Counted from the first letter of the stretch, positions 772 to 17,147 are shown. The stretch is 61,947 bases of DNA from a virus (IMGVR_UViG_3300033153_001808:1-61947); one strand, 5' to 3'. Translations and numbers: made by a program. The notes: a model not told the origin generated them from the sequence alone.

Positions 772-783
772 AAAGGAGACATT

Positions 784-1482: not shown

Positions 1483-1494
1483 GGAGGTTCTAAT

Positions 1495-1875: not shown

Positions 1876-2000
1876 TCTGCTTTATGCGAGTAGATGCAGA
1901 AGAAGCAGAAAGGTATGATACATTAGAGGAAGCACAAGACGTAGTAGAAAGTCTAAAGGCAATGAACCCAGAAGACATATACCAAATAGAGGTGATATAA
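1854..2000 (+). CDS. hypothetical protein (48 aa)
   Basis: AAGGAGG RBS; MRPRYEVVCFMRVD...YQIEVI; fills gap; read manually. Confidence 0.6.
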   Translation: MRPRYEVVCFMRVDAEEAERYDTLEEAQDVVESLKAMNPEDIYQIEVI

Positions 2001-2281
2001 TGAAACAATGCAACGAATGTGCGAACCATAACTGCAATATAATCCGTAGTGGTTGGGCCTCAAAAGGCCCGAATTTTCGCTTCACTCACAGACTCTCCAG
2101 AGCAGAACTAATGACATCCTGCAAGAGCCACACAGAACTTCCTATATTCAAGCGGACAATTCTCGAACATTTATTCACTAACCCAACCCAAATAGCTAAA
2201 GCATTTGAACTCATATCAAGTGCAGGGTTGAAGTTTGTAGAAACTAATAGAAAGCCCGGGTTTCGGTTAGAACTCACATAA
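2000..2281 (+). CDS. hypothetical Cys-rich protein
   Basis: TAATG coupling, GAGGTG RBS, CxxC. Confidence 0.65.
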   Translation: MKQCNECANHNCNIIRSGWASKGPNFRFTHRLSRAELMTSCKSHTELPIFKRTILEHLFTNPTQIAKAFELISSAGLKFVETNRKPGFRLELT

Positions 2282-2308
2282 AACCGAGGCGTTGGGACAT
2301 GACTGATA

Positions 2309-2424
2309 AATGCTCCACGTAGACTGGGTCGCCTTACCCAATAGTGGAGCGTTGACTTCCCGCCTCCTCTCCTTACCGCAGAGTGCGAGCAAGTACGAGG
2401 ATGCGGTCTTGGAGGTGGGAAGTT
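2309..2424 (+). ncRNA. putative structured RNA / leader (two nested stem-loops)
   Basis: aatgctccac/gtggagcgtt (2309-2353) and gacttcccgcctcc/ggaggtgggaagtt (2354-2424), with inner helices and G-U pairs on the + strand. Confidence 0.55.
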
Positions 2425-2452
2425 TTCTTACATATAGAAAGGAGACTGAAGT

Positions 2453-2605
2453 ATGAAAATACAACAAGCTAAACTTTGTTTGGATTGTGATGAGTTGTAT
2501 ACAGGAGAAGGGTGTCCTGTGTGTGCGTCACGAGTGTATGTGTATATCAATAAATGGATAACAAATAGGATAAATAGATATGAAGACAGAACTAAAGCCC
2601 TATAA
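2453..2605 (+). CDS. small zinc-finger protein (50 aa)
   Basis: AAGGAG RBS; CLDC...CPVC; read manually. Confidence 0.6.
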   Translation: MKIQQAKLCLDCDELYTGEGCPVCASRVYVYINKWITNRINRYEDRTKAL

Positions 2606-2999
2606 TCATGAGTTATACTCCCCGCACTCCTGGCCGCCTAAGGTGGGACAGATCATAATACTCCTTGACGACCCTCGTGGGTATGTAGGAGTTCTTTTAA
2701 GCATCACAGGAGACAGGAGTGAGGTCAAACTCCTTGATGCTCAGGATGAGGTCTTGGATGTGGAACTGTCGGCTTTGCTCCCGACTGGTAAAACTCCACG
2801 AGACCTCATCCTTCAATATGAACCAACGGCTCTTAGTCTATCACAGAATCTTGCAATCGAGCGGAGTATACCGGATTTTACTCGATTGAGGAAATCTACC
2901 AAAAAAGGAGGTCCAAAGAAGAAGAAAGTGTTGACAGAAGCTAATAAGATGTTTTTGGCTAAACTTATTAAGGAGGCACTTGCAAAGAAGGGAGGTTGA
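2580..2999 (+). CDS. hypothetical protein (SH3/KOW-like N-terminus, basic C-terminus)
   Basis: ORF track; 'VGQIIIL...GYVGVLL...SEVKL'. Confidence 0.65.
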   Translation: MKTELKPYNHELYSPHSWPPKVGQIIILLDDPRGYVGVLLSITGDRSEVKLLDAQDEVLDVELSALLPTGKTPRDLILQYEPTALSLSQNLAIERSIPDFTRLRKSTKKGGPKKKKVLTEANKMFLAKLIKEALAKKGG

Positions 3000-3184
3000 T
3001 GATGGCGGTAACTATACTCGGATACCATATAAACATCATAAGAAGAAAAAGAGTTTATCAACCTATAAAATGTAAGCAGTTATGGAGAGACCAGAAGCCA
3101 AGCAAGCCAATGACTATTAGACTAACAAGGCAAAAAATGCGGAGAATAGCACAGCAGATGGGCTATACCTTACAAGAGGTGTGA
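2996..3184 (+). CDS. hypothetical basic protein
   Basis: GGAGG RBS, overlaps upstream stop. Confidence 0.55.
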   Translation: MMMAVTILGYHINIIRRKRVYQPIKCKQLWRDQKPSKPMTIRLTRQKMRRIAQQMGYTLQEV

Positions 3185-3300
3185 GGGAAGTGTGTTATGA
3201 CAAGAAAACAGGCTAAAAAGATCACGGATATGACATTACAAGAAAGACAAAAGATCATAGAAGATTACCTAATGAGGAGACTAAGGAAGGAGGATAAAAA

Positions 3301-3510
3301 ATGAAAGCAGAAATAGGAGCTGACTTACATGCACTACAACATGGTGATGGTATCTGGGTATACACCTGTGATCGTGAACTAAAGGCCACAGACTTAGCAT
3401 CACAATTCTCAGGTACCGGTGATAAAATATACTTACTTAGAGAAGAAATGACAGAACTATTGGGTTTCATGCTACGTATCGAGCTAAACAGAACAGGAGA
3501 CAAAGAATGA
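3301..3510 (+). CDS. hypothetical protein
   Basis: AAGGAGG RBS. Confidence 0.65.
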   Translation: MKAEIGADLHALQHGDGIWVYTCDRELKATDLASQFSGTGDKIYLLREEMTELLGFMLRIELNRTGDKE

Positions 3511-4397
3511 AAGCAACTAAGTCTGTACTACAGGACTTGAGAGCAGACGGGATCAAGGTATATGATAATAGTATGATCCAGTCTGCTATTTCTTGTCCAC
3601 GCTCGTACTACTACCGCCACATAAAAGGTCTTGTGCCAATAACCACAGACCAGATACCATATGGTCTATGGTTCGGGCAGATAGGCCACGGTGCACAAGA
3701 AATATGGTGGAAAGAGAAAGACGACACAGAGGCAATTCGGTACTTTGTGGATAAGTTCGAACAATATGCAGAGCCACCTAAGTTCTCGCATAAGACAGGC
3801 AAGGAGTTGGGAGCGACTTATACAGTACTGTATGGTTGTAGTCTACTAAGTGCTTATTTCAACAAATACCGCTTAGACACCAGAGAGGTTATTGAGTTAG
3901 AACTCCCGCTTGCCGAGCAGATCTCGGTGGACATATTCATGTGTGGCCGGATAGACAAGATCGTGAAGGGGCCATCTGGGCTTGTGTTTTGTGATTACAA
4001 ATTCACGAAATACATGAACGAGTATCAGGTGAATCCAAGTCCACAATTCATGAACTATAAATATCTTGTGGAAAAGCTCACAGGTGAGCACGTGTCAGGA
4101 GAGTTAGATATACTCGGTGTATCAAAGACTAAAGACGTAGACGAACTTCTCCGCAGAGAGCCATTTGACTACACACAATACCAGATGGACTGTTGGCAAG
4201 ACTCGGTTATAAACTGGGTGGAGCAGATAGAGTCTTACAAGAAAGATGGTTTCTATCCACAGACCTGGAGATGTAAGCCGTTCTTTAGGGATTGTGAGTA
4301 TTTGCCTTTGTGTACCTTGCCTACACCGGATAGTCATGATAAATTATTGGGGAGTATGTACAAAGAGGAGAGATGGGACCCGTTTATGTTGGTATAA
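3507..4397 (+). CDS. PD-(D/E)XK nuclease (RecB/Cas4-like exonuclease)
   Basis: SCPRSYYY, G..GH, ELEL, GRIDKIV, DYKFT, Q..NY and C-terminal C..C..C cysteines. Confidence 0.85.
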   Translation: MKATKSVLQDLRADGIKVYDNSMIQSAISCPRSYYYRHIKGLVPITTDQIPYGLWFGQIGHGAQEIWWKEKDDTEAIRYFVDKFEQYAEPPKFSHKTGKELGATYTVLYGCSLLSAYFNKYRLDTREVIELELPLAEQISVDIFMCGRIDKIVKGPSGLVFCDYKFTKYMNEYQVNPSPQFMNYKYLVEKLTGEHVSGELDILGVSKTKDVDELLRREPFDYTQYQMDCWQDSVINWVEQIESYKKDGFYPQTWRCKPFFRDCEYLPLCTLPTPDSHDKLLGSMYKEERWDPFMLV

Positions 4398-4411
4398 AAA
4401 GGAGTTTTATT

Positions 4412-4573
4412 ATGGAAGAAAGTACTTATATGGTTGCGTGTATTATTCTTGAGGCTAAAGCATTATGTGAAAAATTTATATTAAAGGTAGAAACAGGTAG
4501 AGCAAGAAGTGTGGAAACTTATAGGGAGTGTAAACACTTACTGGACAGTATAAACAAGAGCATGAAGCAGTAA
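4412..4573 (+). CDS. hypothetical protein
   Basis: Part of ORF 4373..4573; AAGGAG before MEEST. Confidence 0.6.
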   Translation: MEESTYMVACIILEAKALCEKFILKVETGRARSVETYRECKHLLDSINKSMKQ

Positions 4574-4593
4574 CCAAAAAGGAGGACAAAAGG

Positions 4594-4839
4594 ATGAGAC
4601 TAATGAGCTATAGAATCGAGACAGAAGAAGGTTGGTTGGAAATCAGTGAAATAAAAGGTAAGACATTGGTGGAATTAGCCATAAAGAATACCGAGGGAGA
4701 TAACTCTTTCTGTACATTAAACAGAGAAGGTTTCAATGAACTAACACGTTTGAGTTATGACATATTCTTGGAAGACCCGCCGGAAGACCCTCCAGAAGAC
4801 CCTGCACACTTCGAGAAACTATTCACAGAGGAGGACTAA
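4594..4839 (+). CDS. hypothetical acidic protein with EDPP repeat
   Basis: AAGGAGG RBS; 12-bp direct repeats near 4771-4803. Confidence 0.65.
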   Translation: MRLMSYRIETEEGWLEISEIKGKTLVELAIKNTEGDNSFCTLNREGFNELTRLSYDIFLEDPPEDPPEDPAHFEKLFTEED

Positions 4840-4994
4840 TGAAACCACCTACAGGCTTCAAAGCTGATAATGGTCAACAGTTCTCCATAAAGATCAGGAA
4901 GACAAACATTCGCTCTTACTGGATTGAACTAATAGGCACACATAGAGTGATTAAGGTCAAAAAAAGGAGTAAGAAACTAATGTGGGAGAATTAA
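4839..4994 (+). CDS. hypothetical basic protein (51 aa)
   Basis: GAGGAGG RBS, TAATG coupling; read manually. Confidence 0.55.
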   Translation: MKPPTGFKADNGQQFSIKIRKTNIRSYWIELIGTHRVIKVKKRSKKLMWEN

Positions 4995-4995
4995 G

Positions 4996-5475
4996 ATGAC
5001 ACTTCAAAGGATTAGTAGAGTAGGTACCACAAGAAGTAGGACCAGACGCTCACACGGCAGAATGGTAGCAAGTCTACGCTACATGCCTAATGGGGTTATG
5101 TTGGAGCTTGAGGCACCTTATAATAAGGACTTTACGGACACACTCAAGAAATCTGTGCCGAGTAAGAAACGTGCTTGGAACGCAGACGATAAGTCGTGGT
5201 TTATTGTAAAGGATCAGTTTGATAAACTGTCTCATCTACTGGATCAGTACTTTGATGAGACTATCTTACTAGACTTCCCGGCTCAAGAAGTCTCGGCGAG
5301 TTCGTTTGCAAAGTTGTATCTATTAGAGGGTGCTCCGTTGGAAGTCGTGAGAGCGGTCTACAAAGCACTTGCAGTGAAGTACCATCCAGACAAAGGTGGG
5401 GATCAAGGGATTATGACTACAATTAATGTAGCCTATAATGAGATTTTGGGTGAGTTGAAAAACGGAGAGGAGTAA
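4996..5475 (+). CDS. J-domain (DnaJ-like) protein with HARP-like N-terminal domain
   Basis: VRAVYKALAVKYHPDKGGD...INVAYNEI (HPD motif); N-terminal 'PYNKDF...RAWN...SWFI'. Confidence 0.8.
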   Translation: MTLQRISRVGTTRSRTRRSHGRMVASLRYMPNGVMLELEAPYNKDFTDTLKKSVPSKKRAWNADDKSWFIVKDQFDKLSHLLDQYFDETILLDFPAQEVSASSFAKLYLLEGAPLEVVRAVYKALAVKYHPDKGGDQGIMTTINVAYNEILGELKNGEE

Positions 5476-5477
5476 AA

Positions 5478-5687
5478 ATGCGTATAACAAAGGCAGTACT
5501 AGAACAAAGAAACTCAAAGCTCTTAGCAGACAACCAGGCTTTATTTAACCGGAATAAAATACTAAGAGAACAACTGGAGTTCTATCGTAAACATTCAGCA
5601 CCAGGAATACATGCAAGTATGACAATAGCACTTGAACGTGTGACAGATGCTGTTGCTCATGTTGTGGGTGACTTAAAAAGGAGGTGA
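5478..5687 (+). CDS. hypothetical coiled-coil protein
   Basis: GAGGAG RBS. Confidence 0.65.
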   Translation: MRITKAVLEQRNSKLLADNQALFNRNKILREQLEFYRKHSAPGIHASMTIALERVTDAVAHVVGDLKRR

Positions 5688-5691
5688 AAGT

Positions 5692-6303
5692 ATGACAGAA
5701 CTACAGAACACGAACACAGGAGTACAATCAGTCGCTAGACAGAAACTCAACAAGAAAGAATCAATAACTTTGAAGAGCTTGAATCCAATCGTTCAGCAGA
5801 ACAAAGACACAATCTTACTGGCGGATATTTCCGGTAGTATGAATGGAGAGAAGATGCGGGGACTTAAAGATGCACTCTCTACAGTATGGAAGCCGGGAAT
5901 ACAAGGGATTGCCTTTAATCATGAACTGTTTGAGCTTGTGGAACAGGATATACAATTCTTGGGTGCATCAGGTACTACGGCTATGTTAGAAGCATTACAG
6001 GAAGCATGGTCAAGAAATCCCTCACATATGATCTTGCTCACAGACGGTCAGCCAAGCAATGGAACCAAAGAAATCCTACAAGAGGTTAGTCATCATACAG
6101 ACATTCCTATAGACACAGTAGGTATAGGCGAGTATGGTGGGTTTGGCTACGATGCAGACTTCTTGCGAGAGGTTGCACGAATGACTGGTGGGAGGTTTAC
6201 AGACGTAGGAGAGCCTATGAAGTTGACAGAGACTTTGCAGTTTTTGTTGGCTTATAAACCAGATGGACTGGAGGCTCCGAAAGAAGGGGTTATACAACTT
6301 TGA
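5692..6303 (+). CDS. von Willebrand factor A (vWA) domain protein
   Basis: MIDAS DISGSM, GTT, LLTDG, IDTVGIG, LREVARMTGG. Confidence 0.85.
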   Translation: MTELQNTNTGVQSVARQKLNKKESITLKSLNPIVQQNKDTILLADISGSMNGEKMRGLKDALSTVWKPGIQGIAFNHELFELVEQDIQFLGASGTTAMLEALQEAWSRNPSHMILLTDGQPSNGTKEILQEVSHHTDIPIDTVGIGEYGGFGYDADFLREVARMTGGRFTDVGEPMKLTETLQFLLAYKPDGLEAPKEGVIQL

Positions 6304-6317
6304 AAGGAGGTAGGAAG

Positions 6318-6824
6318 ATGAAAACAAAACACAAGAACATGTTAGGAACACTATTGGCTTGTATGTTGTTTCTACCCACATCAGGTCAGGCCAAAGCAAC
6401 ACCACATATAGGAACAAGTACTATACAGACAAACGAGACCGTTACTCTTGAATTAACTAAGCCAGAGTTTTACTTTGGGGATTCTTTTATATACTACTCA
6501 AAAAACTCAAGTATTGCTGCATGTAGACAATTAACAGCGCCAGAAAGTGAGTATGTTGAGCTACAAGTAACAGGAATAGCACCAGGCACAGTTTATATTG
6601 TCGCAGCTTCAACAGAAAACGGAGAGTCTGAAACATATCATAGGGTTATAGTAGGCAATAAAGCTCCAGAATATAGAATGGTCCCATGTTATATGTACTA
6701 CAATGCCAGATTTGTGAACCATTACTACACCACAGATAAGAGCTTAGAAGACGATCTTGCAATATGGGGTTATAAATACATAGGTATTGCATACTATGTA
6801 TACCAAAGGGTTGAAAATGAATAG
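6318..6824 (+). CDS. secreted protein (signal peptide, Ig-like segment, C-terminal DUF5648-like motif)
   Basis: GGAGG RBS; hydrophobic signal ending AKA; 'HYYTTD...GYKYIGIAYYVY'. Confidence 0.65.
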   Translation: MKTKHKNMLGTLLACMLFLPTSGQAKATPHIGTSTIQTNETVTLELTKPEFYFGDSFIYYSKNSSIAACRQLTAPESEYVELQVTGIAPGTVYIVAASTENGESETYHRVIVGNKAPEYRMVPCYMYYNARFVNHYYTTDKSLEDDLAIWGYKYIGIAYYVYQRVENE

Positions 6825-7038
6825 ACAATTTTTGATAGACAAGATTAATAAGTTAATCCACAAAGAGTGGATCTCGGAAGGTGATCTGATGAGTATATAT
6901 GCTATACTTGTCGCCCTTCCGATCAGTGAGGGCACAGTATCTTATATGTTAGCAGACTTAGCACAGCAAATAGACGAGACTTTTAGACAACTATACATAC
7001 AAAAGGAGGACACAAAAAATGCAAATCAAACTTCCTAA
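6817..7038 (+). CDS. hypothetical protein
   Basis: Part of ORF 6787..7038 from MNRQF. Confidence 0.55.
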   Translation: MNRQFLIDKINKLIHKEWISEGDLMSIYAILVALPISEGTVSYMLADLAQQIDETFRQLYIQKEDTKNANQTS

Positions 7039-7777
7039 TCCAGAGCCATTACATCTCTTTAAACCAGAATCATACAATGTCCTATGCTACGGACCATCTG
7101 GTTCAGGCAAGACAGAATTTGCGGCCACATGGCCAACCCCAATCTTGTACATTGATACCGATCGTGGGATGACAACTGTAAAAGCCTCACCACGGATCAA
7201 AAACAAAGACAATATATACCGTGTGGCAATCTTGGATTATCCTGATGGCGTGCAAACCAACCAACCTTTAGGGTTTCTTACAATTAAACAAGTCTTGAAA
7301 GACATCCAAAGCACAGGCATGTATGGTGAGATTAAACCAGCTACAGTAGTTCTTGATACCCTGACAACTACGGCCAACTTCACGATGGCACATGTCCTAC
7401 ACGTGAACCGTCATGCAGGTCAACAACCTACCTTGCCGGATTGGGGTAAGCAGTTACGGGAACTCAAAGAGATTATAACTATTGGAGTAGGGTTTAAGTG
7501 TAATTTTATAGTTCTTGCACATGAACAGTATTTGAAAGATGAGTTGTCAGGAAGGACTTGGTGTGTTCCATTGATTACCGGGAAGTTAGCACAGGAAATT
7601 GGACTATACTTCGATGAAGTCTACCATGCAGAAGTAAAAACAGTAGGTGGGAACAGTAAATATATACTAGCCACTAAAGCAAGTGGTCTTATTACTGCAA
7701 AGTCCCGGCTTGATTTGCCGAATCCGATTGACACCCATTTTAATAGTATAAAAGGTGTGATTGAGAAGTTTCAATAG
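7019..7777 (+). CDS. Sak4-like / AAA_24 ssDNA-annealing ATPase
   Basis: Walker A YGPSGSGKT, IDTDRG, VVLDTLT, LAHE, FDEV, AKSR. Confidence 0.85.
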   Translation: MQIKLPNPEPLHLFKPESYNVLCYGPSGSGKTEFAATWPTPILYIDTDRGMTTVKASPRIKNKDNIYRVAILDYPDGVQTNQPLGFLTIKQVLKDIQSTGMYGEIKPATVVLDTLTTTANFTMAHVLHVNRHAGQQPTLPDWGKQLRELKEIITIGVGFKCNFIVLAHEQYLKDELSGRTWCVPLITGKLAQEIGLYFDEVYHAEVKTVGGNSKYILATKASGLITAKSRLDLPNPIDTHFNSIKGVIEKFQ

Positions 7778-7826
7778 AACTGAGCATAAGGGGGTGTAGT
7801 AGAGAACTACAAAAAGCCGGGAGGGA

Positions 7827-8090
7827 ATGATGTCAGAATGGTATGAAAGCATGACTAAGAAGGAACTATACGATAAATGGATAACCTGGGAGAAACACGC
7901 AAAAGTCCACAGTGCAGCAGAGGATTATTATAAAATAGAGTTGGCTAAAGCTCATGAATTACTAGGTAGGGTTATTCATCAGACCAGTGAGCGATGGGAT
8001 AGTGTCAATTTAACACGATTTTATCCTACCGATAATTTGCATCACCGGCGTCAGGTTAATAATCCAACAGGATTGAAAGGAGGTGACTAA
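7827..8090 (+). CDS. hypothetical protein
   Basis: GGAGG RBS. Confidence 0.6.
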   Translation: MMSEWYESMTKKELYDKWITWEKHAKVHSAAEDYYKIELAKAHELLGRVIHQTSERWDSVNLTRFYPTDNLHHRRQVNNPTGLKGGD

Positions 8091-8137
8091 ATGCAAGACA
8101 CAGAAACCATAAACACTCAAACAGGAGGACATTAACC

Positions 8138-8572
8138 ATGCCCACAATCGAACTTGGAGTAGATTTTAGTGATGTACAAAATGAGGACACATTTGAACCG
8201 CTTCCGAACGGAACTTATGACTTTATAACCACCAGTGCGGAACCTAAAAACTCCGCCGCTGGAAGACCTATGATTAAATGGGTCTTTACAGTCAATCATG
8301 AAGGAAAAGACTATAAACTCTTTTACAACACTGTCCTACCGTGGGAGGTAGATGGTGAGTGGGTTGTCAGTGGAGTAGGGATGCTCGTGAGTGTATGTAA
8401 AGCTCTTGGGGTTCCGTGGTCAGGCAAGAGTCTGAACTTGGAGGACTATCTTGGACTTGGAGGAGTTTGTCAGGTCGTACAGAAACCCAAACAGGTCAAG
8501 CAGTTAGACGGGAGCTATGCTGACAACACAACTGGCGAGGTCGTTAATGATATTAGTAAGTTTATTTACTAG
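8138..8572 (+). CDS. DUF669-like ssDNA-binding protein
   Basis: FEPLPNGTY...SAAGRPMIKWVF...N; follows Sak4-like gene. Confidence 0.75.
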   Translation: MPTIELGVDFSDVQNEDTFEPLPNGTYDFITTSAEPKNSAAGRPMIKWVFTVNHEGKDYKLFYNTVLPWEVDGEWVVSGVGMLVSVCKALGVPWSGKSLNLEDYLGLGGVCQVVQKPKQVKQLDGSYADNTTGEVVNDISKFIY

Positions 8573-8624
8573 ATCACTGGAAACCAGATAACACAACACA
8601 CCAATCATACAGGAGATAGAAGTT

Positions 8625-8900
8625 ATGGATACAGTAAGCGTAGAAGTTAAATCTAAGGGCCAGGTTTTAGGGTCATTCGACTATGAAGCACCGGTGGATT
8701 TGTCCGAGGCCATTGATGTTGATGGTGAGGAAAAGATCTTTAAACTCTATGCACAACAGCGGAAGATCGCATTTCTTAATGCAAAGCGCAGGGAGTTGAC
8801 CGGTGGTGGTCTGCCCAAGGCGTTGGTACAGGCACTCAAGGACGCAGATCCTGATGTGTTGAAGAAGATCGCCGCAGAAATGGGGTTGGATCTGGAGTAG
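8625..8900 (+). CDS. hypothetical protein
   Basis: AGGAG RBS. Confidence 0.75.
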   Translation: MDTVSVEVKSKGQVLGSFDYEAPVDLSEAIDVDGEEKIFKLYAQQRKIAFLNAKRRELTGGGLPKALVQALKDADPDVLKKIAAEMGLDLE

Positions 8901-8907
8901 GTAGATA

Positions 8908-8997
8908 TGTGATAAAGTCCATGCCTTTGGGATTGCGGGGAGTTTGAAAAAAACCTCTGAGGAAGGTATCACGCAACCGCAACTTTGACTTTATCAC
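8908..8997 (+). ncRNA. structured RNA array, unit 1
   Basis: gtgataaagtc (8909-8919)/gactttatcac (8987-8997), 11-bp stem; inner ttgcgg/ccgcaa. Confidence 0.55.
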
Positions 8998-9004
8998 TTT
9001 AACT

Positions 9005-9081
9005 TTGTGGGGATGCTTTGTATCGTGAGGTATAGAGGAGAAGTGGTGTGGTAGACTACATCTTTGATCACATCCCCACAA
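9005..9081 (+). ncRNA. structured RNA array, unit 2
   Basis: ttgtggggatg/catccccacaa 11-bp stem; inner ctttgtatc-GTGA-ggtatagag (GNRA loop) and ggtgtgg-taga-ctacatc hairpins. Confidence 0.65.
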
Positions 9082-9088
9082 TAAATCT

Positions 9089-9186
9089 TGTGCAATTAAC
9101 TGGCTGAGGGTCTACAAGATCTTAGGATGGTTAAATAAGCCGTAGATGTGAGGTAAGGGGACCATTGTAGGCTAGTTAGTTGCACA
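9089..9186 (+). ncRNA. structured RNA array, unit 3
   Basis: tgtgcaattaactggct/ggctagttagttgcaca 17-bp stem whose 3 deviations are all G-U; inner hairpins. Confidence 0.65.
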
Positions 9187-9192
9187 TCTTAA

Positions 9193-9259
9193 TTGTGGCA
9201 GTGTCCCGAACTATCGGATCTAATGTCTTTTGGGGGCGAAAGTATCCGAGCTGCCACAA
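9193..9259 (+). ncRNA. structured RNA array, unit 4
   Basis: ttgtggcag/ctgccacaa stem; inner tcggat/atccga; cccgaa/tttggg crossing (pseudoknot or alternative) pairing. Confidence 0.55.
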
Positions 9260-9284
9260 CAACAACTAACAGGAGGACTTAAAG

Positions 9285-9491
9285 ATGCCTTTATTTGAAG
9301 TAGCTATATTAGAAGAACCAACAAAGAAAGATCGTGAGGAAGAAGGAATTATAGAGAAACTAGTCTTTGGTCCCACAGCAGTAGTGGCCAGGGACTCACA
9401 ATCTGCCGGAATTAGTGCGGTCTTAGACTGTGCCGCAGAGATTCAGGTTGACCGTAGCCGGATGCAGGTATTAGTACGCCCTTTCGGTTAA
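9285..9491 (+). CDS. small hypothetical protein ending in RPF(G); candidate -1 frameshift gene
   Basis: AGGAGG RBS; ends CGC CCT TTC GGT TAA. Confidence 0.8.
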   Translation: MPLFEVAILEEPTKKDREEEGIIEKLVFGPTAVVARDSQSAGISAVLDCAAEIQVDRSRMQVLVRPFG

Positions 9492-9733
9492 AGGAACTAT
9501 CCGATAAGAATAGTGGAACATCAGGTGCAAGTGGGTTAAGTGGTGCGAGTGGTAGTAGTGGATCACAAGGTATTCAGGAGTGGTCTTCTGAGGTTGATTT
9601 CGACAGACAACAAGAACACGAGAGTGCCTCAAACCTATACTACCAACACACTCCAAACACATCAGGGGTGATGACAGTATTAAGTGATCAACCAGTCACA
9701 ACTTACTCAGCAAGTAGTTTAGGTGTTGACTAA
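9482..9733 (+). CDS. start-less -1 frame extension of the 9285 gene (putative frameshift product, about 149 aa in total)
   Basis: Frame open 9458-9733 with no early ATG/GTG; slippery C_CCT_TTC at 9479-9485; encodes FRLKELSDKNSGTSGASGLSGASGSSGSQG...SLGVD. Confidence 0.6.
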   Translation, partial: FRLKELSDKNSGTSGASGLSGASGSSGSQGIQEWSSEVDFDRQQEHESASNLYYQHTPNTSGVMTVLSDQPVTTYSASSLGVD

Positions 9734-9737
9734 TAAA

Positions 9738-9775
9738 GGTATGGTGTATAGAAATGTACACCATACCATTCATTT
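9738..9775 (+). terminator. hairpin with GAAA loop, terminator-like
   Basis: ggtatggtgtata-GAAA-tgtacaccatacc followed by attcattt, right after stop 9733. Confidence 0.55.
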
Positions 9776-9786
9776 AATGAACCGAA
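9764..9786. promoter_or_regulatory. palindromic repeat motif, copy 2
   Basis: taccattcatttaatgaaccgaa before AAGGAG RBS. Confidence 0.7.
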
Positions 9787-9798
9787 GGAGACTACATC

Positions 9799-10152
9799 AT
9801 GTTAGGTATTCTAGGACTATATATCTTATTGACCGGGATTCCGACCACACTCAACCACGAGATCAAGGTGACAGTAACTGCATACTCACCGGATGAACAC
9901 CAGACAGACTCTACACCTCTGCTTACAGCATCACAGAAAAGAGTATCTACTAAGTATGTAGCCCTGAGTAGGGATCTGGAGAGTGAGTATGGATTAAATT
10001 TCGGGGATTCTGTTATCTTGAACGGAGTAGAGTATGAGTTCCAAGACAGGATGAATAAGAAGTGGACTAAGAGAGTAGATAGGTTCTTTTGGAGTCGTGC
10101 AGAAGCACTACAGTTTGGTAAACAAGACGGAGTATTGGAGGTAGTAAGATGA
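9799..10152 (+). CDS. 3D-domain (MltA-like) protein, putative peptidoglycan-acting enzyme with N-terminal hydrophobic anchor
   Basis: VTVTAYS..QTDSTP..TAS..VALSRDL..FGD..QDRM..RVD. Confidence 0.75.
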   Translation: MLGILGLYILLTGIPTTLNHEIKVTVTAYSPDEHQTDSTPLLTASQKRVSTKYVALSRDLESEYGLNFGDSVILNGVEYEFQDRMNKKWTKRVDRFFWSRAEALQFGKQDGVLEVVR

Positions 10153-10313
10153 AAGATATTTTTAGTACTACAAAACTAACATCGGACCAGAAGTTGAGAT
10201 TAATGACACAGGCAATTAATTATGTACATATTCGACTTGGGTATAATGAAAAGCCAGTGTTGTCTGAGGTGTATAAAGAAATGTTTGAACTTATTACGGA
10301 GGACAATAAGTGA
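10149..10313 (+). CDS. hypothetical protein (54 aa)
   Basis: GGAGG RBS, ATGA/GTGA overlaps at both ends; read manually. Confidence 0.55.
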   Translation: MKDIFSTTKLTSDQKLRLMTQAINYVHIRLGYNEKPVLSEVYKEMFELITEDNK

Positions 10314-11560
10314 AACTCCCCATAGCAGACATAAACATAGAACACCGCATAAGAACATTTTTCGATCCAAAGAAACTAGACGAACTAGCAGAATCCATGC
10401 GGACGGTAGGTCTTATAGAACCTGTGGTAGTAGACGAAGACCATAATTTATTGGCAGGTGAGCGTAGGATAAAAGCAGCCCGGTCTTTGGGGTGGACAGA
10501 GATAACTACGGTCTATCTCAAGGACTTGAACCAGTGGCAGAAGAAGATAGTTGAACTGGAGGAGAATCTAAGGAGAGAAGAACTCACCTATGTAGAGGAA
10601 GTCAACGCAAAGGAGAGGATACATGAACTATACCAAGAAAAATACGGAAAGACAGCTCCAACAGGAGGAAGAAAGGGTGGTTGGAAAGTTAAAGATACTG
10701 CTGAACACCTTGGAATCAGCGCGGGAGCAGTTAGTCAAGACCTCCAACTTGCAAGAGCAATTAAACAAGATCCTGAACTTGGTAAACAAAAGACCAAAAT
10801 AGCCGCCAGGAGTATGATGCAAAGGAAGCAGACTATTAAGGCCCGACAACTCATGGTGGTGTTGAGTGCGGTTAAGAAACCTAAACAGGAACAGAAGTCT
10901 TTATTTCCCGCGCCTGTGGATTCCATACAACTCCTACATGGAAAAGCAGAGGTCATAATACCAACCTTAGCAGACAACTCCATAGACTGCCTAATAACAG
11001 ACCCGCCTTGGCAAGTAGAGTATGACAAAGAATTTGGGTCAGATCCACAAGCTGGTCTTGTCTTGACACAGAAAGTCCTGGCACTTCTATACCCTAAGCT
11101 AAAATCCGGGTCTCTATGTTGGATGTTCTGTGCTACCAAACACCTCATGAAGGGTACTATATATGAACTTGTCATGTCATGTGGGTATAGAATATTCGAA
11201 CAGGTTCTTATCTGGTACAAGCCTCATGTAGCACATAGCTCACATCCATATAGGGAGTTGAAGAATGACTATGAACCGGCACTATTCTTCTCAAAGGACG
11301 AACCTCGTGACTTAATAAAACCTATGTTCGCAGTTCAGGAAGCTAAGTTGATTGGGCAGAAGCTACATCCCGCACAGAAACCTACAGAAGTACTACAGAC
11401 TTTGATCTATAATTCTACTGTAGAAGGGGAGACTGTATGCGATCCATTTATGGGAAGTGGGAGTGTGTGTCAAGCGGCAAAAAAGACGGGCCGTAAAGCT
11501 ATAGGTATTGAGAAGGAACAGGAGTGGTATGATCTTGCGGTTGGAACTGTTGGAGTATAG
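10310..11560 (+). CDS. ParB/Srx-like N-terminal domain fused to beta-class N6/N4 DNA methyltransferase
   Basis: LAESM..VGLIEPVVV..AGERRIKA..EEN..R; ITDPPW, HPAQKP, DPFMGSGS. Confidence 0.9.
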   Translation: MKLPIADINIEHRIRTFFDPKKLDELAESMRTVGLIEPVVVDEDHNLLAGERRIKAARSLGWTEITTVYLKDLNQWQKKIVELEENLRREELTYVEEVNAKERIHELYQEKYGKTAPTGGRKGGWKVKDTAEHLGISAGAVSQDLQLARAIKQDPELGKQKTKIAARSMMQRKQTIKARQLMVVLSAVKKPKQEQKSLFPAPVDSIQLLHGKAEVIIPTLADNSIDCLITDPPWQVEYDKEFGSDPQAGLVLTQKVLALLYPKLKSGSLCWMFCATKHLMKGTIYELVMSCGYRIFEQVLIWYKPHVAHSSHPYRELKNDYEPALFFSKDEPRDLIKPMFAVQEAKLIGQKLHPAQKPTEVLQTLIYNSTVEGETVCDPFMGSGSVCQAAKKTGRKAIGIEKEQEWYDLAVGTVGV

Positions 11561-11568
11561 GGGGGGAG

Positions 11569-11790
11569 ATGGTAAAATGTAAAAAATGCGGGACCTATTA
11601 TAAAGTGAGTTGCCATGTCTGTTATCCTGACCCACCAACAGTTGAGACAGAGGATATATTGGCCCTAATATACAGTAGGTCTGACATTCATGGTCGAACT
11701 GTTATCGCAACACTATGTGACGAAATATTTGATCGGTCTGGTGCATTATTGGGGCGTATCCGTGAACTGTCCCAGGAGGTGATCGAATGA
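11569..11790 (+). CDS. small zinc-finger protein
   Basis: CKKC...CHVC. Confidence 0.6.
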   Translation: MVKCKKCGTYYKVSCHVCYPDPPTVETEDILALIYSRSDIHGRTVIATLCDEIFDRSGALLGRIRELSQEVIE

Positions 11791-12008
11791 AACGCATAAT
11801 AAGAACGCTAATATGGGACATAGAAGAATGCTGTGGTTGCCCTGAAATGAAGGAAAATTATTGTGTTATAGCTGAAAATGAATGTCCTTATGAGGGGTTG
11901 CCTGAATGGTGTCCATTAGAAGATGCCCCGGATATCGAGGCACCCTGTGGCGAAGACAAGAACTGCTCATCATGCCCTAAACACGGGAAGTGCGAATGGG
12001 TGAAATGA
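11787..12008 (+). CDS. Cys-rich hypothetical protein
   Basis: AGGAGG RBS; CCGC..C..C..PEWCPL. Confidence 0.65.
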   Translation: MKRIIRTLIWDIEECCGCPEMKENYCVIAENECPYEGLPEWCPLEDAPDIEAPCGEDKNCSSCPKHGKCEWVK

Positions 12009-12361
12009 AAAAATCGGCACTCTTACTCCTACTCCCTTTCCTGTGTGCATGTTCCACCGCACACAAATGGACCAAAACAGATAAGATACTAGAAACCTCT
12101 TATCTTGTCTTGCATACAGTAGATTGGTTGCAGACCAGAAATGCAGACTGGGATAGGTTTTATGAACGGAATCCTATTCTTGGTAAGAAACCGAGTACAA
12201 GTGAGGTAGATCTATACTTCTTACTGACCGTCCTTTTGCACCCGTTGGTTACACATATTATTCCACAGAAGTATAGACTATACTGGCTCATACCCACCAT
12301 AGGTATGCAAGTTATTGTAGTAGGAAACAATTTCCGTATAGGTATGGGGATTAATTTTTAA
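12005..12361 (+). CDS. putative lipoprotein/membrane protein
   Basis: MKK+hydrophobic+LCAC lipobox-like; DWLQT..YERNPILG; further TM segments. Confidence 0.65.
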   Translation: MKKSALLLLLPFLCACSTAHKWTKTDKILETSYLVLHTVDWLQTRNADWDRFYERNPILGKKPSTSEVDLYFLLTVLLHPLVTHIIPQKYRLYWLIPTIGMQVIVVGNNFRIGMGINF

Positions 12362-12379
12362 TAACAGGAGGACTAAAGA

Positions 12380-12622
12380 ATGACAACATTACCATGTGAA
12401 GGAACTTATGATGGATATGAAAATAGTTTATATCCAAGAGGCTCCAAGTCCCGGGCTTTGTTGGAGGACGAGTGGGACATGGACGCAGAAATGGATGCAG
12501 CAGAAGCAGCACTTGAATCGTATGCAGACAGACTGCATGATGAGATCCAGTGTGGGGATATTACAGAAGGACAGGCAAAGAGTAGATTTGCGAGAGCAAG
12601 GAAGAAGTCTTGTAGGAGGTAG
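12380..12622 (+). CDS. hypothetical acidic protein
   Basis: AGGAGG RBS. Confidence 0.6.
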   Translation: MTTLPCEGTYDGYENSLYPRGSKSRALLEDEWDMDAEMDAAEAALESYADRLHDEIQCGDITEGQAKSRFARARKKSCRR

Positions 12623-12627
12623 AGAAA

Positions 12628-12849
12628 ATGAAAAGGTACATAACACTTTTTCGTCTTGTTGAGACACACGATCCTTATGGCTCTAAACTAACTCTAACTT
12701 ATATAGACGAAGCAGGAAAATTAACCAAACCTCAATACAAACGTATTAAACATAAAACATATCAGAATGTTTGGAGACTCGATGGTAGATCTATTAGGTA
12801 CATGAAGCACGTAAGATTAGTAGAAAATGAGATTCCGTATATTATATAA
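12628..12849 (+). CDS. hypothetical protein
   Basis: AGGAGG RBS. Confidence 0.6.
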   Translation: MKRYITLFRLVETHDPYGSKLTLTYIDEAGKLTKPQYKRIKHKTYQNVWRLDGRSIRYMKHVRLVENEIPYII

Positions 12850-12869
12850 ACCTTAACAGGAGACACAAG

Positions 12870-13073
12870 ATGAAAAAACACATTAGACTAACCATAGACG
12901 AGAAACTATACAAACGTCTCACAACCCTCTGCACCCATCACGGAGAACAGACACATTTAATCCGTGAAGGTATTAAGATGATTGTGAGGTTTAAGGAGAA
13001 CCAGAGAAAGGAGGCTTTGGATTATGTCGACAGACAACTCAACTCAGGAGGCACGACCACAACAATTAGCTGA
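12870..13073 (+). CDS. ribbon-helix-helix (CopG/Arc-like) DNA-binding protein
   Basis: KHIRLTIDEKLYKRL...LIREGIKMIV strand-helix-helix pattern. Confidence 0.6.
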   Translation: MKKHIRLTIDEKLYKRLTTLCTHHGEQTHLIREGIKMIVRFKENQRKEALDYVDRQLNSGGTTTTIS

Positions 13074-13293
13074 CCATCATTGGGAGTTTGTAAGTAAACT
13101 AATTAGTTTATGTCAAGGATACCATGACCATAGTCAGCTATTATTAACTTGGGTTTACAAGGAGGCTTTTTTACATGGGTATAAACATGGATGTGAAGAC
13201 AGTATTAACTCCGCAGGAGTTGGCAGCGTTTTCCGAGCTAGACCAGAAGTGCACTCAAGCCAATCTGGTCCTCCCGAAGGGACTTACCCATAA
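13024..13293 (+). CDS. hypothetical protein (overlaps polymerase start)
   Basis: AAGGAGG RBS; 'LADHHWEFV...YKEAFLHGYKHG'. Confidence 0.55.
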   Translation: MSTDNSTQEARPQQLADHHWEFVSKLISLCQGYHDHSQLLLTWVYKEAFLHGYKHGCEDSINSAGVGSVFRARPEVHSSQSGPPEGTYP

Positions 13294-16200
13294 TGCACTT
13301 TGTATAGTAGGTGAGAGTCTAGGCTCCGAAGAGAACTTGAATGGCGAATACTTCATAGGCAAGGCCGGTAAACTACTAGACAAGCTCCTAAAAGAGGCCG
13401 GGATTATACGTTCAGCCTCACACATCACGAACGTAATCAAGGTCCAGCCACCAGGAAATAAGGTCGAGAGACTTCATGAGATAGGTCTATCTATACAGGA
13501 CTTCATACCTTATCTTAAGGAGGAGTTAGACACCATAAAACCCAAAGCTATACTAGCAGTGGGTCGTCATGCACTAGAGGCTCTCACCTCAGAACACGGT
13601 ATAACTAAATGGCGTGGATCTGTTCTGGAGTGTAGTTTAACTGAAAATCCGGTCAGTGTTCTACCTACCTTACATCCCTCATACCTACAACGTGGAATGA
13701 TGCACCTCTACCCCTATGTGCGTCATGATATGCAAAACTTTGCAAGACTAGGATTCGGAATCTACAAACCAGAAGACCCCTATGAACAGATCATAAACCC
13801 GTCTCTTACACAGTGTCTTGACTTCCTGTCAGACATAGCTAACACTGCAACCGAGACCTGCTTCGATATAGAAACAGTAGCTCACCAAAGAATTACCTGC
13901 ATCGGGTGGACTAATGGACCACACAAAGCAATATGTATACCTTTTAGGCACAATGGTCTCAAGTTAAGATGGGCAGAACACGAACAAATCATGCTATTGG
14001 ATGCCATGAAACAGATCTACCAGAAACCCAGGCTTTTGAAGATAGGCCAGAATATACATTATGATATACACTTCCTCTTACCTCTACTGGGTTTCCCGCG
14101 TGAACCTATATTTGACACACGATACGCTCACACCCTTCTTCATGCAGACGCCAAGCATGATCTAGGGTTTCTGACCTCTGTCTATACCAACATGAACTAC
14201 CACAAAGATGAAGCAAAAGATTGGGCTTCAAAAAAAGTACCCAAAGACGAAACCCTATGGGGTTATAATATAAAAGATGTGATCACGACCCACCGTGTCG
14301 CACAGGCTATTACTAAAGACCTCAAAGAAGCTAATCAGTATGACTTCTTCACAGGCTTCATGATGCCGTTTAGACGTGTTATATTCGACATGGAAGCACA
14401 TGGTATAAACGTGGACATGGATCTGATGAAAGAACTCCGGGACTATATACAAGAAGACGAGCTTCCTATTGCGTTGGATATAATCCACAAAATGACCGGT
14501 CGTGAGATGAATCCAAACTCCTCTAAACAGGTCGGAGAGTATCTAGCAGAAGAACTTCATCTACCTATACCACGAACCGCAAAGGGTAACTATACTGTAA
14601 AAGAAGAAATCTTAGAGGCTCTAGTTGCCCGGCATCCAAAGCATAGACAACTACTAAAGCAGATCTTGTGTGCGCGGGTCCTCAAGGCCAAAGACCTAGG
14701 AACCTATCTGACCGCTGTGGTGTCTAAGGACAACCACATGAAGTGTTCCTATGGTATGACTATTACAGGTCGTCTGACATCATCTACTAACCAAATAGAC
14801 GAAGGCACTAACTTACAGAACATACCTAAACATCTACGGCAGATCTTCATACCAGAACCAGATCAGGTCTTTGTAGATGCAGACCTATCACAAGCAGAAG
14901 CAAGAGTCATGGCGTGGCTTATGAAGTCAGACAAACTAAAAGAAGTATTCCACAGTGGACACAAGATCCACAAAATAGTAGGAGGATGGATATATGACAA
15001 AGACCCAGAGGATCTTACACCTACAGAGTATCTTATTGCGAAAAAAACAGTGCATGGTTGTGTAGATGAGAAAACCCAAGTCTTAACCTTAACTGGATGG
15101 AAGTATATCAATGAACCCTTCTTAGGTCAGATAGCACAATGGGACCCCAAAACAAAGGAAATTACGTTCGTCTATCCACACAATCTAGAGCCAATACCCT
15201 ATAAGGGTATAATGTACCGTCACACACAAGGATACTTCGATCAAATGGTAACCCCAACTCATCGTATGCCGCATTGGCAGGTACGATATGGTAGAAAGAG
15301 AAAACACGTAGATGGACCAGTGCGAGACATAGAAGCACAGAAGTTTACAAACAGACGTAATTCGTACAAACTACCTCTAGCTGGAGTATATTCTAGTTCC
15401 ACACCTAAACTAAATCCAAATGAAATGAGCTTATTAGTTGCTATTCAAGCAGACTGTTCCGTACGAAGGTCAGGGGAGGTTGAGGCCAACTTTACAAAAG
15501 GCTACAAAATAGCTAGATTAAAATATCTACTGAAACAATTAAGAATAGACTATACTGAGTATCCCTATAAAGATACTGGTTCTAGCTTCTACATACCAAA
15601 ACAATGGAAGGTAGTAGCACTATTAAATTGTTTTGAGAAACATAAAACGTTCAGTTTCGATGCAATATTAAATAACACTCCTAAAGTCTTGGATACATTT
15701 ATAAGAGAATTAGGTTTTTGGGACGGTAGAGTTAACAAAGAACAGGATGGAACAATAAACTCTTGGCAGTATTATACTACAAACGCACAAAACGCAGAAG
15801 TAGCTGCAACAATAGCACACCTAACAAACAAACGTGCTGTTGTGAGTATGCGTGAGAATTGGTGGGAGGAAAAAAGAACCAAAGATCTTTACACTGTGAG
15901 TATTTCATGCTACCCTTTAGGGGATCTAACAGAAATGAAAACAGAGATAATAAAAGACTTTGGTGGTGTTGTTTATTGTCCTACGGTGATGTCTTCTTAT
16001 TTTCTTATACGTCGTAATGGTCATATATCAATAACAGGAAACTCAAATTACCAAATGGGAGAACGTAAATTTGCGACAATTATCGAACGACCAGTTGCGG
16101 ACGCTAGAGAGATCATGCGTAAGTATTCTAAGATCGTACCGGAACTACCTCAGTATCATAAAGACATTCAAAGAGAAATAGAAACGACTAGAAAACTGGT

Positions 16201-16528
16201 AACCATGTATGGCAGGACGAGGATCTTCACAGGTCGGTTAGACGACTCGACCTTTAAAAGTGGCTATGCACAACTACCACAGAGTACAGTAGTAGATACA
16301 ATAAATCTCGGGATTCTTGGTCTATGGTGCATAACTCCTAGAAGTGTGCATTTCATAACCCAGACACATGATAGTATCTTACTCTCTATAGATCCCAATA
16401 AGGTAGAGTATTGGAATAAGTATATAAAAGCCCATCTTGAAACATTGAGAGAGTTGGAGATAAATGGCGATAGTCTTGTAATTCCACTGGATATTGAACC
16501 CCCTAAAGATAACTGGTACGGTGCTTAA
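13175..16528 (+). CDS. polA: DNA polymerase A with N-terminal uracil-DNA-glycosylase-like domain, 3'-5' exonuclease and intein
   Basis: UDG: VGESLG..F.GKAG..ITNVIK..LHPSY; exonuclease FDIET, GQNIHYD, YNIKD; polymerase TGRLTS..NLQNIP, DLSQAE, AKKTVHG/SNY, THDS. Confidence 0.92.
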   Translation: MGINMDVKTVLTPQELAAFSELDQKCTQANLVLPKGLTHNALCIVGESLGSEENLNGEYFIGKAGKLLDKLLKEAGIIRSASHITNVIKVQPPGNKVERLHEIGLSIQDFIPYLKEELDTIKPKAILAVGRHALEALTSEHGITKWRGSVLECSLTENPVSVLPTLHPSYLQRGMMHLYPYVRHDMQNFARLGFGIYKPEDPYEQIINPSLTQCLDFLSDIANTATETCFDIETVAHQRITCIGWTNGPHKAICIPFRHNGLKLRWAEHEQIMLLDAMKQIYQKPRLLKIGQNIHYDIHFLLPLLGFPREPIFDTRYAHTLLHADAKHDLGFLTSVYTNMNYHKDEAKDWASKKVPKDETLWGYNIKDVITTHRVAQAITKDLKEANQYDFFTGFMMPFRRVIFDMEAHGINVDMDLMKELRDYIQEDELPIALDIIHKMTGREMNPNSSKQVGEYLAEELHLPIPRTAKGNYTVKEEILEALVARHPKHRQLLKQILCARVLKAKDLGTYLTAVVSKDNHMKCSYGMTITGRLTSSTNQIDEGTNLQNIPKHLRQIFIPEPDQVFVDADLSQAEARVMAWLMKSDKLKEVFHSGHKIHKIVGGWIYDKDPEDLTPTEYLIAKKTVHGCVDEKTQVLTLTGWKYINEPFLGQIAQWDPKTKEITFVYPHNLEPIPYKGIMYRHTQGYFDQMVTPTHRMPHWQVRYGRKRKHVDGPVRDIEAQKFTNRRNSYKLPLAGVYSSSTPKLNPNEMSLLVAIQADCSVRRSGEVEANFTKGYKIARLKYLLKQLRIDYTEYPYKDTGSSFYIPKQWKVVALLNCFEKHKTFSFDAILNNTPKVLDTFIRELGFWDGRVNKEQDGTINSWQYYTTNAQNAEVAATIAHLTNKRAVVSMRENWWEEKRTKDLYTVSISCYPLGDLTEMKTEIIKDFGGVVYCPTVMSSYFLIRRNGHISITGNSNYQMGERKFATIIERPVADAREIMRKYSKIVPELPQYHKDIQREIETTRKLVTMYGRTRIFTGRLDDSTFKSGYAQLPQSTVVDTINLGILGLWCITPRSVHFITQTHDSILLSIDPNKVEYWNKYIKAHLETLRELEINGDSLVIPLDIEPPKDNWYGA
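15059..16042 (+). mobile_element. intein with LAGLIDADG-type endonuclease (328 aa) in polymerase motif B
   Basis: N-terminal CVDEKTQVLTLTGW, block B VTPTHRM, LLVAIQAD / FIRELGFWDG, C-terminal VYCPTV..FLIRRNG..ITGN followed by Ser+1. Confidence 0.9.
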
Positions 16529-16839
16529 TGTACAACACAACCTATAAATGCAAGTTCTGCCATGAGACATTCACCGGCCACCAAGGTAGGATTGTGTGTA
16601 GTGGAGAAGACTGTATAACAAAACGCAAGGCAGAACTAAGAAAGAACGCACAGGGTATTAGTAAAAAGGCCCGCAGTAAGGCTAAGATAAAAAAGAAACT
16701 GACCAAAAACACCAAGAAATGCGTCCGCTGTGGGAAACCTAAAGGAATTAATAGGTGGTATTGTTCTAGGTGTTTGAAATATCTAAGCAGACTTTATGGA
16801 GATTTAGAGCTTTATAGTGTTAGTGTTGGTAGACATTAA
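16528..16839 (+). CDS. zinc-finger protein
   Basis: CKFC, CSGEDC, CVRC, CSRC. Confidence 0.65.
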   Translation: MYNTTYKCKFCHETFTGHQGRIVCSGEDCITKRKAELRKNAQGISKKARSKAKIKKKLTKNTKKCVRCGKPKGINRWYCSRCLKYLSRLYGDLELYSVSVGRH

Positions 16840-16851
16840 AAGGAGAGTAAA

Positions 16852-17133
16852 ATGAGCAGATACAACATCCCACAAGATCAAATAGATTCTATGAACATAG
16901 ACACTGTATCTAACCTACTCAACACTATACAGAATGAGATGTGCGAACTTGCTGGATTGGAGTATAATCTATATGCCAGAAGACGGGAGCTAGAAAAGAT
17001 CCTACATCCAGAGCTATTTGTAGACCAGGAACCCAGCCCAGAATCAGAGGTTAAAAAACTCACCTCAAATCAACTAAAGAATTTACTTAAAGTTGCACTA
17101 GAAAGAGGCATAAACCTTAAGGATCTTGTATAG
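16852..17133 (+). CDS. hypothetical coiled-coil protein
   Basis: AAGGAG RBS. Confidence 0.7.
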   Translation: MSRYNIPQDQIDSMNIDTVSNLLNTIQNEMCELAGLEYNLYARRRELEKILHPELFVDQEPSPESEVKKLTSNQLKNLLKVALERGINLKDLV

Positions 17134-17147
17134 GAGGAGACCAAAGC

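Follow-up and report, generated by a model that had tools for sequence, protein, structure and literature searches.

To our knowledge, the conserved programmed frameshifts of phages come mainly from tail assembly chaperone genes and from a few capsid genes. The G/GT frameshift of the phage tail assembly chaperone was reportedly described by Xu, Hendrix and Duda in 2004. In the case of the capsid genes, exemplified by T7 10A/10B and gp5A/5B of the Lactobacillus phage A2, the capsid protein is extended by a -1 frameshift, and Garcia et al. are said to have reported a capsid gene -1 frameshift in 2004. The dnaX gene of E. coli, whose frameshift was reportedly described by Blinkowa and Walker in 1990, produces tau and gamma by means of the heptamer A_AAA_AAG, which is preceded at a distance of about 10 nt by a Shine-Dalgarno (SD)-like element and followed by a stem-loop, and in this case the shift truncates the protein. 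Passages of Sharma et al. (2014, PMC4066793) assign internal SD elements a role in -1 frameshifting, report that H_HH.U_UU.Y belongs to the group of -1 motifs with the highest efficiency in E. coli, and give C_CC.U_UU.C as a high-level -1 site. Since C_CC.U_UU.C is efficient in E. coli, this heptamer alone is a plausible working site.

Here, we analyze a small phage gene that ends in such a heptamer. It is located in a 61,947-bp virus record of IMG/VR (estimated to be 93% complete), the whole of which is referred to as the window. A first-pass annotation had proposed that this gene, which encodes 68 residues and ends CGC CCT TTC GGT TAA, carries a correctly phased C_CCT_TTC, that slippage leads into a -1 frame that remains open between 9458 and the TAA at 9733 and lacks an early start codon, giving a protein of about 149 aa, and that a strong hairpin directly follows. 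All these coordinates and features were recovered from the sequence (Table 1). The heptamer has the X_XXY_YYZ phase relative to the zero frame and is the only one present in the overlap between the two frames (9458-9491), and the slip product, counted from the coordinates, amounts to 67 + 82 = 149 residues. The first ATG, GTG or TTG past the slip site is codon 63 of the 84 codons of the -1 frame. The hairpin located directly after the -1 stop folds with a z score of -5.3, and none of 200 shuffled sequences folds as well. It is also picked up by a terminator scan and is followed by a T-rich tail; together with ATTCATTT, it is a probable intrinsic terminator. The next gene begins at 9799.

The explanation that we favor, with a probability of about 0.88, is that programmed -1 ribosomal frameshifting yields two isoforms from one message. 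With respect to the slippage mechanism, the ratio of the isoforms and the role of the tail, we infer the following. Most ribosomes would translate 9285-9491 and terminate, releasing the acidic 68-aa domain, and a fraction of them would move one base back on C_CCU_UUC and continue in the -1 frame to 9733, with tRNA-Pro in the P site and tRNA-Phe in the A site both re-pairing as given in Table 1. The 149-aa isoform would then consist of the same domain, a flexible Gly/Ser-rich linker and a conserved C-terminal motif. Slippage would be aided, in most relatives, by an upstream (G)GAGGT, by a stem-loop a few bases downstream, or by both.

Table 1. Coordinates of the features of the 68-aa gene and its -1 extension (positions refer to the window).
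Feature	Coordinates	Strand	Remarks
Shine-Dalgarno AGGAGGA	9271..9277	+	7 nt 5' of the ATG of the 68-aa gene; strong; read from the sequence
Zero-frame ORF, short isoform, 68 aa	9285..9491	+	predicted beta-alpha-beta-alpha-beta domain; C-terminus ...VLVRPFG*
Weak SD-like AGGT	9466..9469	+	9 nt 5' of the heptamer; occupies the place of (G)GAGGT in most relatives
Slippery heptamer C_CCT_TTC	9479..9485	+	predicted re-pairing: P-site CCU to CCC, A-site UUC to UUU
Zero-frame stop TAA	9489..9491	+	one sense codon past the heptamer
-1 extension, 82 sense codons (CGG 9485-9487 to GAC 9728-9730) plus TAA 9731-9733	9485..9733	+	putative long isoform of 149 aa
Small stem-loop ACUAU-N9-AUAGU	9496..9514	+	10 nt 3' of the heptamer; weak candidate stimulator only
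Gly/Ser-rich low-complexity linker of the putative long isoform	9512..9571	+	length and composition of the linker vary among relatives
C-terminal tail SGVMTVLSDQPVTTYSASSLGVD	9662..9730	+	apparently a divergent version of the family motif
13-bp hairpin, then ATTCATTT, probable intrinsic terminator	9738..9767	+	located after the -1 stop, not after the zero-frame stop

The proposed arrangement resembles that of dnaX in its three-part layout, which most relatives appear to have ((G)GAGGT, in-phase heptamer and hairpin), and in the tandem -1 re-pairing. It differs from dnaX in the heptamer, which is C_CCU_UUY here, in that the shift would add 45-117 residues in 98 of 101 relatives, and in the weakness of both stimulators in the window; there is no sequence relation between the two genes. 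As in G/GT, the -1 shift would be located close to the 3' end of a short ORF and is conserved among very divergent phages, and its two products, of which the short form would be the more abundant, would have a common N-terminal part. However, no match to any tail-chaperone family was found in Pfam or PHROGs, and the gene lies within a replication and recombination block on the strand opposite to the structural genes, and not between those for the tail tube and the tape measure. As in the capsid pair 10A/10B, a slip in the last codons of the ORF would add a C-terminal extension, and the zero-frame stop is located just beyond the slip site, but the protein concerned is a 68-aa alpha/beta domain and not a major capsid protein, no capsid-like fold match was obtained, and the extension is predicted to be a disordered linker plus a short motif instead of a folded domain. 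The orfA-orfB frameshift of IS3/IS911 elements is similar in its X_XXZ_ZZN heptamer, optional upstream SD and downstream structure, and U_UU.Y-type motifs are also in use in this group (PMC4066793); the gene is not a transposase, however, and its -1 frame contains no catalytic domain.

It should be noted that the window by itself shows only a moderate excess over chance, which is not decisive. At least 40 open -1 codons are present at the 3' end of 23 of its 60 ORFs, mostly as a consequence of overlap with the next gene. An in-phase X_XXY_YYZ within the last six codons is present in 2 of the 60, and only the ORF at 9285-9491 adds a long -1 frame. In the HNH gene at 61288-61788, an in-phase A_AAT_TTT lies two codons before the stop and is followed by just 14 open -1 codons. 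Because long -1 frames are frequent at gene ends in the window, the case depends on the comparison with relatives.

For this comparison we collected 136 loci, consisting of 55 viral contigs, one genome contig and 80 metagenome contigs, which together with the window makes 137. Excluded were 31 copies with identical gene DNA and three genes without the site, namely L032 as well as L049 and L055, which are truncated or chimeric. The resulting set comprises 103 distinct genes, whose products are 41-81% identical to the window protein and whose loci range in GC content from 0.30 to 0.69. An in-phase C_CCT_TTY is present in 98 of the 103 genes, as CCCTTTC in 57 and as CCCTTTT in 41; the other heptamers are TCCTTTT (two genes), TTCTTTT, CCCTTTG and CCCTCTT (one gene each). 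The codon usage at the site is strikingly fixed. The proline codon of the slip site is CCT in 102 of 102 genes, versus 37 of 303 codons at three other conserved proline columns, and the arginine codon preceding it is CGC in 100 of 103, versus 35 of 93 at another conserved arginine. The phenylalanine codon is TTT in 44 genes and TTC in 57, and the last base of the heptamer is only T or C at this codon. Moreover, 90 of the 103 genes have a distance of 10 nt between the start of the heptamer and that of the zero-frame stop. Since CCT and CGC are fixed here and the same residues are free to use other codons elsewhere, selection acts on the nucleotides C-CCU-UUY and not on the residues R-P-F alone. 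Thus, conservation of CCCTTTY, for which the first-pass annotation had suggested a check, holds in the homologous genes, and synonymous non-slippery codons are not used. There are a few exceptions. The gene with CCCTCTT (L111), in which RPL replaces RPF, has retained a long -1 ORF and the C-terminal motif. The -1 ORF and the motif are also retained, as read from the DNA, in L018, one of the two genes with TCCTTTT, and in L048, the gene with TTCTTTT, which fits with slippage on U_UUU in the A site. L102 has one T fewer (CCCTTTG), and its -1 frame closes after three codons; linker-like and tail-like peptides are scattered over two frames, and this gene is either indel-ridden or decayed.

Several observations indicate that the -1 frame downstream of the heptamer is a coding sequence. 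It closes within the locus for 101 genes, with a median length of 71 codons (range 3-117), and reaches at least 45 codons in 98 of these; short extensions are found in L054 (26 codons) and L116 (39 codons). The open -1 frame that the first-pass annotation wished to see in homologues is therefore the rule. In some genes, no more than four codons of the -1 frame are open before the heptamer, so that the shift can take place only close to the 3' end of the gene, within its last few codons. In 27 of 32 GC-rich loci, the third codon position of the -1 frame has the highest GC content of the three (means of 0.63, 0.52 and 0.74), which resembles the upstream gene. When the extension regions were compared between loci by blastp in an all-against-all, six-frame search from which pairs with more than 80% identity had been removed, -1 against -1 gave 166 matches, and each other frame 34-46. 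The -1 peptides combine a low-complexity linker, which is variable, with a shared C-terminal motif that reads approximately VxYxxAPxGxxx[YF]xAxxL. In relatives, the gene that follows is frequently adjacent to the -1 stop or overlaps with it. In the subclade to which the window belongs, the -1 peptide starts with PFRLKELS[DE]KNS. Over the first 12 -1 codons, the window and L062 differ in four, three of which are synonymous, and the zero-frame stop that lies within these codons differs between the two (TAA versus TGA). As the differences are mostly synonymous, purifying selection in the -1 frame begins right at the heptamer. Hence, the comparative sequence data show that the nucleotides of the heptamer are constrained, that the -1 frame is coding, and that its tail is conserved. 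The frameshift interpretation put forward by the first-pass annotation is in this way strongly supported, by the relatives rather than by the window itself.

The tail of the window is divergent and matches the shared motif only weakly. With an HMM of the motif built without the window, its tail scores an E value of 1.3, the best stretch contributing 7 bits on TTYSASSLGV; with the window included, its -1 frame reaches 7e-5. In searches of Pfam and PHROGs, the -1 peptide produced only tail-fibre and collagen noise (E at least 0.013), which originates from the Gly/Ser run. AlphaFold2 (AF2) modeled the 44-aa tail alone with low confidence (pLDDT 64). Complex predictions of the N-terminal domain with the tail, which were run without controls, scored 0.24 and 0.28 against a mark of 0.32, and hhalign detected no similarity between the profiles of domain and tail. 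MAFFT alignments that combined fused, domain-only and tail-only rows were dropped, because the tails were laid over the N-terminal domain.

Some relatives encode domain and tail in a single frame. At the DNA level, this applies to L032, in which the VRPF/slip site and the linker are deleted and which reads in frame into ...GASTFSATDL... Among predicted proteins, a single frame covers both the domain and the tail motif in P0124, P0123, P0150, P0185 and P0175; RPL or RLF replaces RPF in three of these five, and P0124 and P0123 are rare in-frame versions that keep RPFA. P0167 (RAF) also has an in-frame extension, which matches the motif less clearly. The in-frame fusions other than L032 are metagenome gene predictions, and they could be due to assembly indels. 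A C-terminal extension was counted by eye, from the length and match columns, for about 13 of the 150 best cluster representatives. The split form is the rule in this family.

With respect to stimulatory elements, two tests were applied to the 103 genes, in each of which about 10 positive genes are expected by chance. In 60 genes, the 15-nt stretch whose 3' end is 5 nt away from the heptamer shows better pairing with the anti-SD sequence than 90% of the windows of its own locus, and the 50 nt from the zero-frame stop fall within the lowest decile of folding energies of their own locus in 50. Both elements are present in 34 genes and neither in 27, and the results were similar for earlier subsets of relatives. 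The usual SD-like element is (G)GAGGT, 9 nt 5' of the heptamer. At the glutamate located four codons before the arginine, GAG is used in 23 of 23 cases in the 45-gene set of viral contigs and in 44 of 50 in the 103-gene set; codon use at other glutamate columns is mixed. The window is one of the 27 genes without either detectable stimulator. Its AGGT forms an anti-SD duplex of -4.7 kcal/mol, which corresponds to about the 25th percentile of its own locus and is not significant, and the 75 nt 3' of the site fold no better than shuffled sequences (z +1.44). L062 and L116 also have the 5-bp stem found at 9496-9514, with G-U variation, but this stem is weak. As both stimulators are weak in the window, the efficiency of slippage may be low there.

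Other explanations for the arrangement can be weighed against these data. The downstream ORF might be a second gene, translated separately either from a start of its own or by reinitiation after termination at the zero-frame stop. An ATG, GTG or TTG occurs within eight codons of the slip site in 37 of the 103 genes, often as GTGA or ATGA overlapping the stop, and reinitiation could contribute in those cases. As a general explanation we nevertheless regard separate translation as quite improbable. In the window, no -1 start codon exists at or near the upstream stop that would allow translational coupling, and the AGGA at 9492-9495 is not followed by even a near-cognate start. Of 101 relatives, 4 have no start codon whatever in the -1 frame and 29 have their first one past codon 20. 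Where a GTG does follow, GGAGGT lies about 18 nt from it, which is too far for initiation, and 9 nt from the heptamer. In addition, two genes would leave the fixed synonymous choice CGC-CCT-TTY unexplained, synonymous change in the -1 frame starts right at the heptamer, and relatives fused in frame exist.

The same fused protein would be obtained if RNA polymerase stuttered on CCCTTT(T), so that a minority of mRNAs would be one base shorter and encode it in frame. The site does contain short runs of C and T, and L102 has one T fewer at precisely this place. However, the known bacterial transcriptional realignment sites are runs of about seven or more identical bases, and the runs here comprise just 3-4. 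Besides, the X_XXY_YYZ phase and the fixed C before CCT are what tandem tRNA re-pairing needs, and an SD-like element at a dnaX-like spacing points to the ribosome; transcriptional slippage is therefore a very remote prospect. We give even less credence to an artefact or decay, in which an assembly indel would have split a 149-aa gene, or in which the downstream frame would be an untranslated spacer whose conserved bases serve another purpose. The two in-frame versions that keep RPFA speak for such a scenario, but 98 of the 103 distinct genes, which come from independent assemblies and span the whole range of GC content, have the identical split at the heptamer. This recurrence excludes an assembly artefact, and an untranslated spacer is at odds with the coding composition, the frame-specific similarity and the conserved motif of the -1 frame. 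Programmed ribosomal frameshifting thus remains the explanation that we favor.

The 68-aa protein belongs to a large family. In a collection clustered at 90% it has 526 homologues of 37-119 aa, and a profile search yielded 654 clusters at 50% identity (E at most 1e-3). The remark in the first-pass annotation that similar phage proteins often end in RPF proved right: among the matches listed, all 120 homologues end in RPF followed by 0-5 residues, and 115 of these 120 end in [LIV][VI]RPF plus one residue. The protein has no match in Pfam, PHROGs or PADLOC, and its profile has none among PDB sequences. No tblastn match to the family was obtained in 50,697 GenBank phage records, and blastn against GenBank phages was negative as well. 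A single match to the family was obtained in bacterial genomes, on a metagenome-assembled contig, and in the ESM Atlas the family occurs only within viral 'hypothetical protein' clusters. AF2 models the protein confidently (mean pLDDT 90.7) as beta-alpha-beta-alpha-beta, and the short isoform is accordingly predicted to be an acidic domain with this fold. The best Foldseek match in the PDB was PurS (E 7e-3), and in BFVD only uncharacterised phage proteins were matched (best E 9e-3). In a wide VIA-align search, the N-terminal domain of a eukaryotic 60S ribosomal protein chain came out best (Z 6.9), and PurS, T7 Gp2 and anti-CRISPR proteins were among the lower matches. A function based on these fold matches was discarded, since they reflect common small alpha/beta arrangements.

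The start of the gene is also conserved at the DNA level. Its first 47 nt (9285-9331) are about 80-85% identical even to those of GC-rich relatives; the N-terminus, MPLFEVAI, is almost invariant and encoded by AT-rich codons, and the glutamate at position 5 is GAA in 94 of 103 genes. This conservation may reflect selection for high expression that acts on the translation start region. Separately, the predicted protein P0166 (972 aa) consists of about 14 tandem units, each with a fragment that resembles part of the N-terminal domain (...QDSQSA...), and is probably an assembly or repeat artefact.

The early, non-structural placement of the gene that had been proposed agrees with the organization of the window. 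The gene lies between those for a DUF669 SSB and a ParB-methylase, within a + strand block (439-19658) that encodes an exonuclease, a Sak4-like annealase, the DUF669 SSB, the ParB-methyltransferase, a DNA polymerase, a primase and an HNH nuclease. The terminase, portal, major head (50984-51907) and tail-fibre genes are all on the - strand. In relatives, + strand neighbours were scanned against Pfam, longest-ORF-first picking having been dropped because it selects antisense ORFs in GC-rich loci. These neighbours are heterogeneous, and 58 of 81 are without a hit. RecT is located directly upstream in five related loci, and other neighbours include Sak4-like AAA_24, DNA polymerase A with UDG, UDG and AAA ATPases. 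A P22-type portal is directly upstream in two loci and a terminase downstream in one; the pair of tail tube and tape measure was never found among the neighbours in relatives. Similarity at the DNA level between the window and other loci is limited to the gene, and only L060 additionally shares the DUF669 and 91-aa genes. The gene thus behaves like an island of high conservation, surrounded by genomes that are otherwise not related to each other.

The mechanism is classical, and the gene family is, as far as our searches reach, new to recoding. Full-text literature searches and passages of PMC4276943, 10.1101/2025.10.02.679949 and PMC10885494 yielded nothing on the family; the cluster lists of large frameshift screens (e.g. 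the supplement to PMC4066793) could hold it. The family is very common in environmental phages, and gene callers annotate the 68-aa half and leave an 'empty' gap of 240 nt; recognition of the site would correct the annotation of hundreds of viral contigs. The C_CCU_UUY site, which occurs with and without SD and hairpin stimulators, would also provide a naturally validated training case for frameshift predictors. The conservation of this two-isoform protein suggests that it has an important function. Our tentative idea, based on analogy with G/GT and 10A/10B, is that the short form might be the abundant working unit and that the long form might tether a sub-stoichiometric share of it to a partner via the tail. 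A broader proposal, which we consider somewhat more doubtful, is that the family might constitute a third large conserved phage -1 frameshift family beside those of the tail chaperones and capsid genes, one outside the virion module, in which the frameshift would set a fixed ratio between the free 68-aa domain and an adaptor form whose linker and VxY...[YF]xAxxL peptide would dock on a conserved partner that acts in DNA metabolism or in the takeover of the host. If true, this would explain why the proteins are 41-81% identical to that of the window despite unrelated neighbours and a GC content of 0.30-0.69.

Some further features of the window and of related loci deserve mention. The 385-nt gap that precedes the gene (8900-9284), which the first-pass annotation had called an RNA array, folds into four tandem closed stems of about 65-100 nt each (approximately 8909-8997, 9005-9081, 9089-9186 and 9195-9260), with a z score of -4.9 and none of 100 shuffled sequences folding as well. 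ARAGORN detected no tRNA in it, there was no Rfam match even at an E value of 5, and no similarity to it was found in any of the 136 related loci; the syntenic gap of L060 is just 124 nt. In L044, a 908-aa gene (215-2938) located upstream of the family member contains an intein (Intein_splicing, PT-HINT), and its near-twin L043 has a 564-aa version without a Pfam match. The 1117-aa DNA polymerase of the window (13175-16528) matches polymerases at residues 39-621 and 958-1101, and a PhoH-like ATPase in between, at residues 622-958; the PhoH-like region could be an inserted domain or a fusion. HNH endonuclease genes are present at 18715-19290, 58292-58804 and 61288-61788, two of which flank the terminase region. 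Finally, a single ORF of 2255 aa on the - strand (34584-41351), within the structural block, has matches to a glycosyltransferase, two methyltransferase-like regions and a 2OG-Fe(II) oxygenase, an unusual giant multi-enzyme protein of the virion module.
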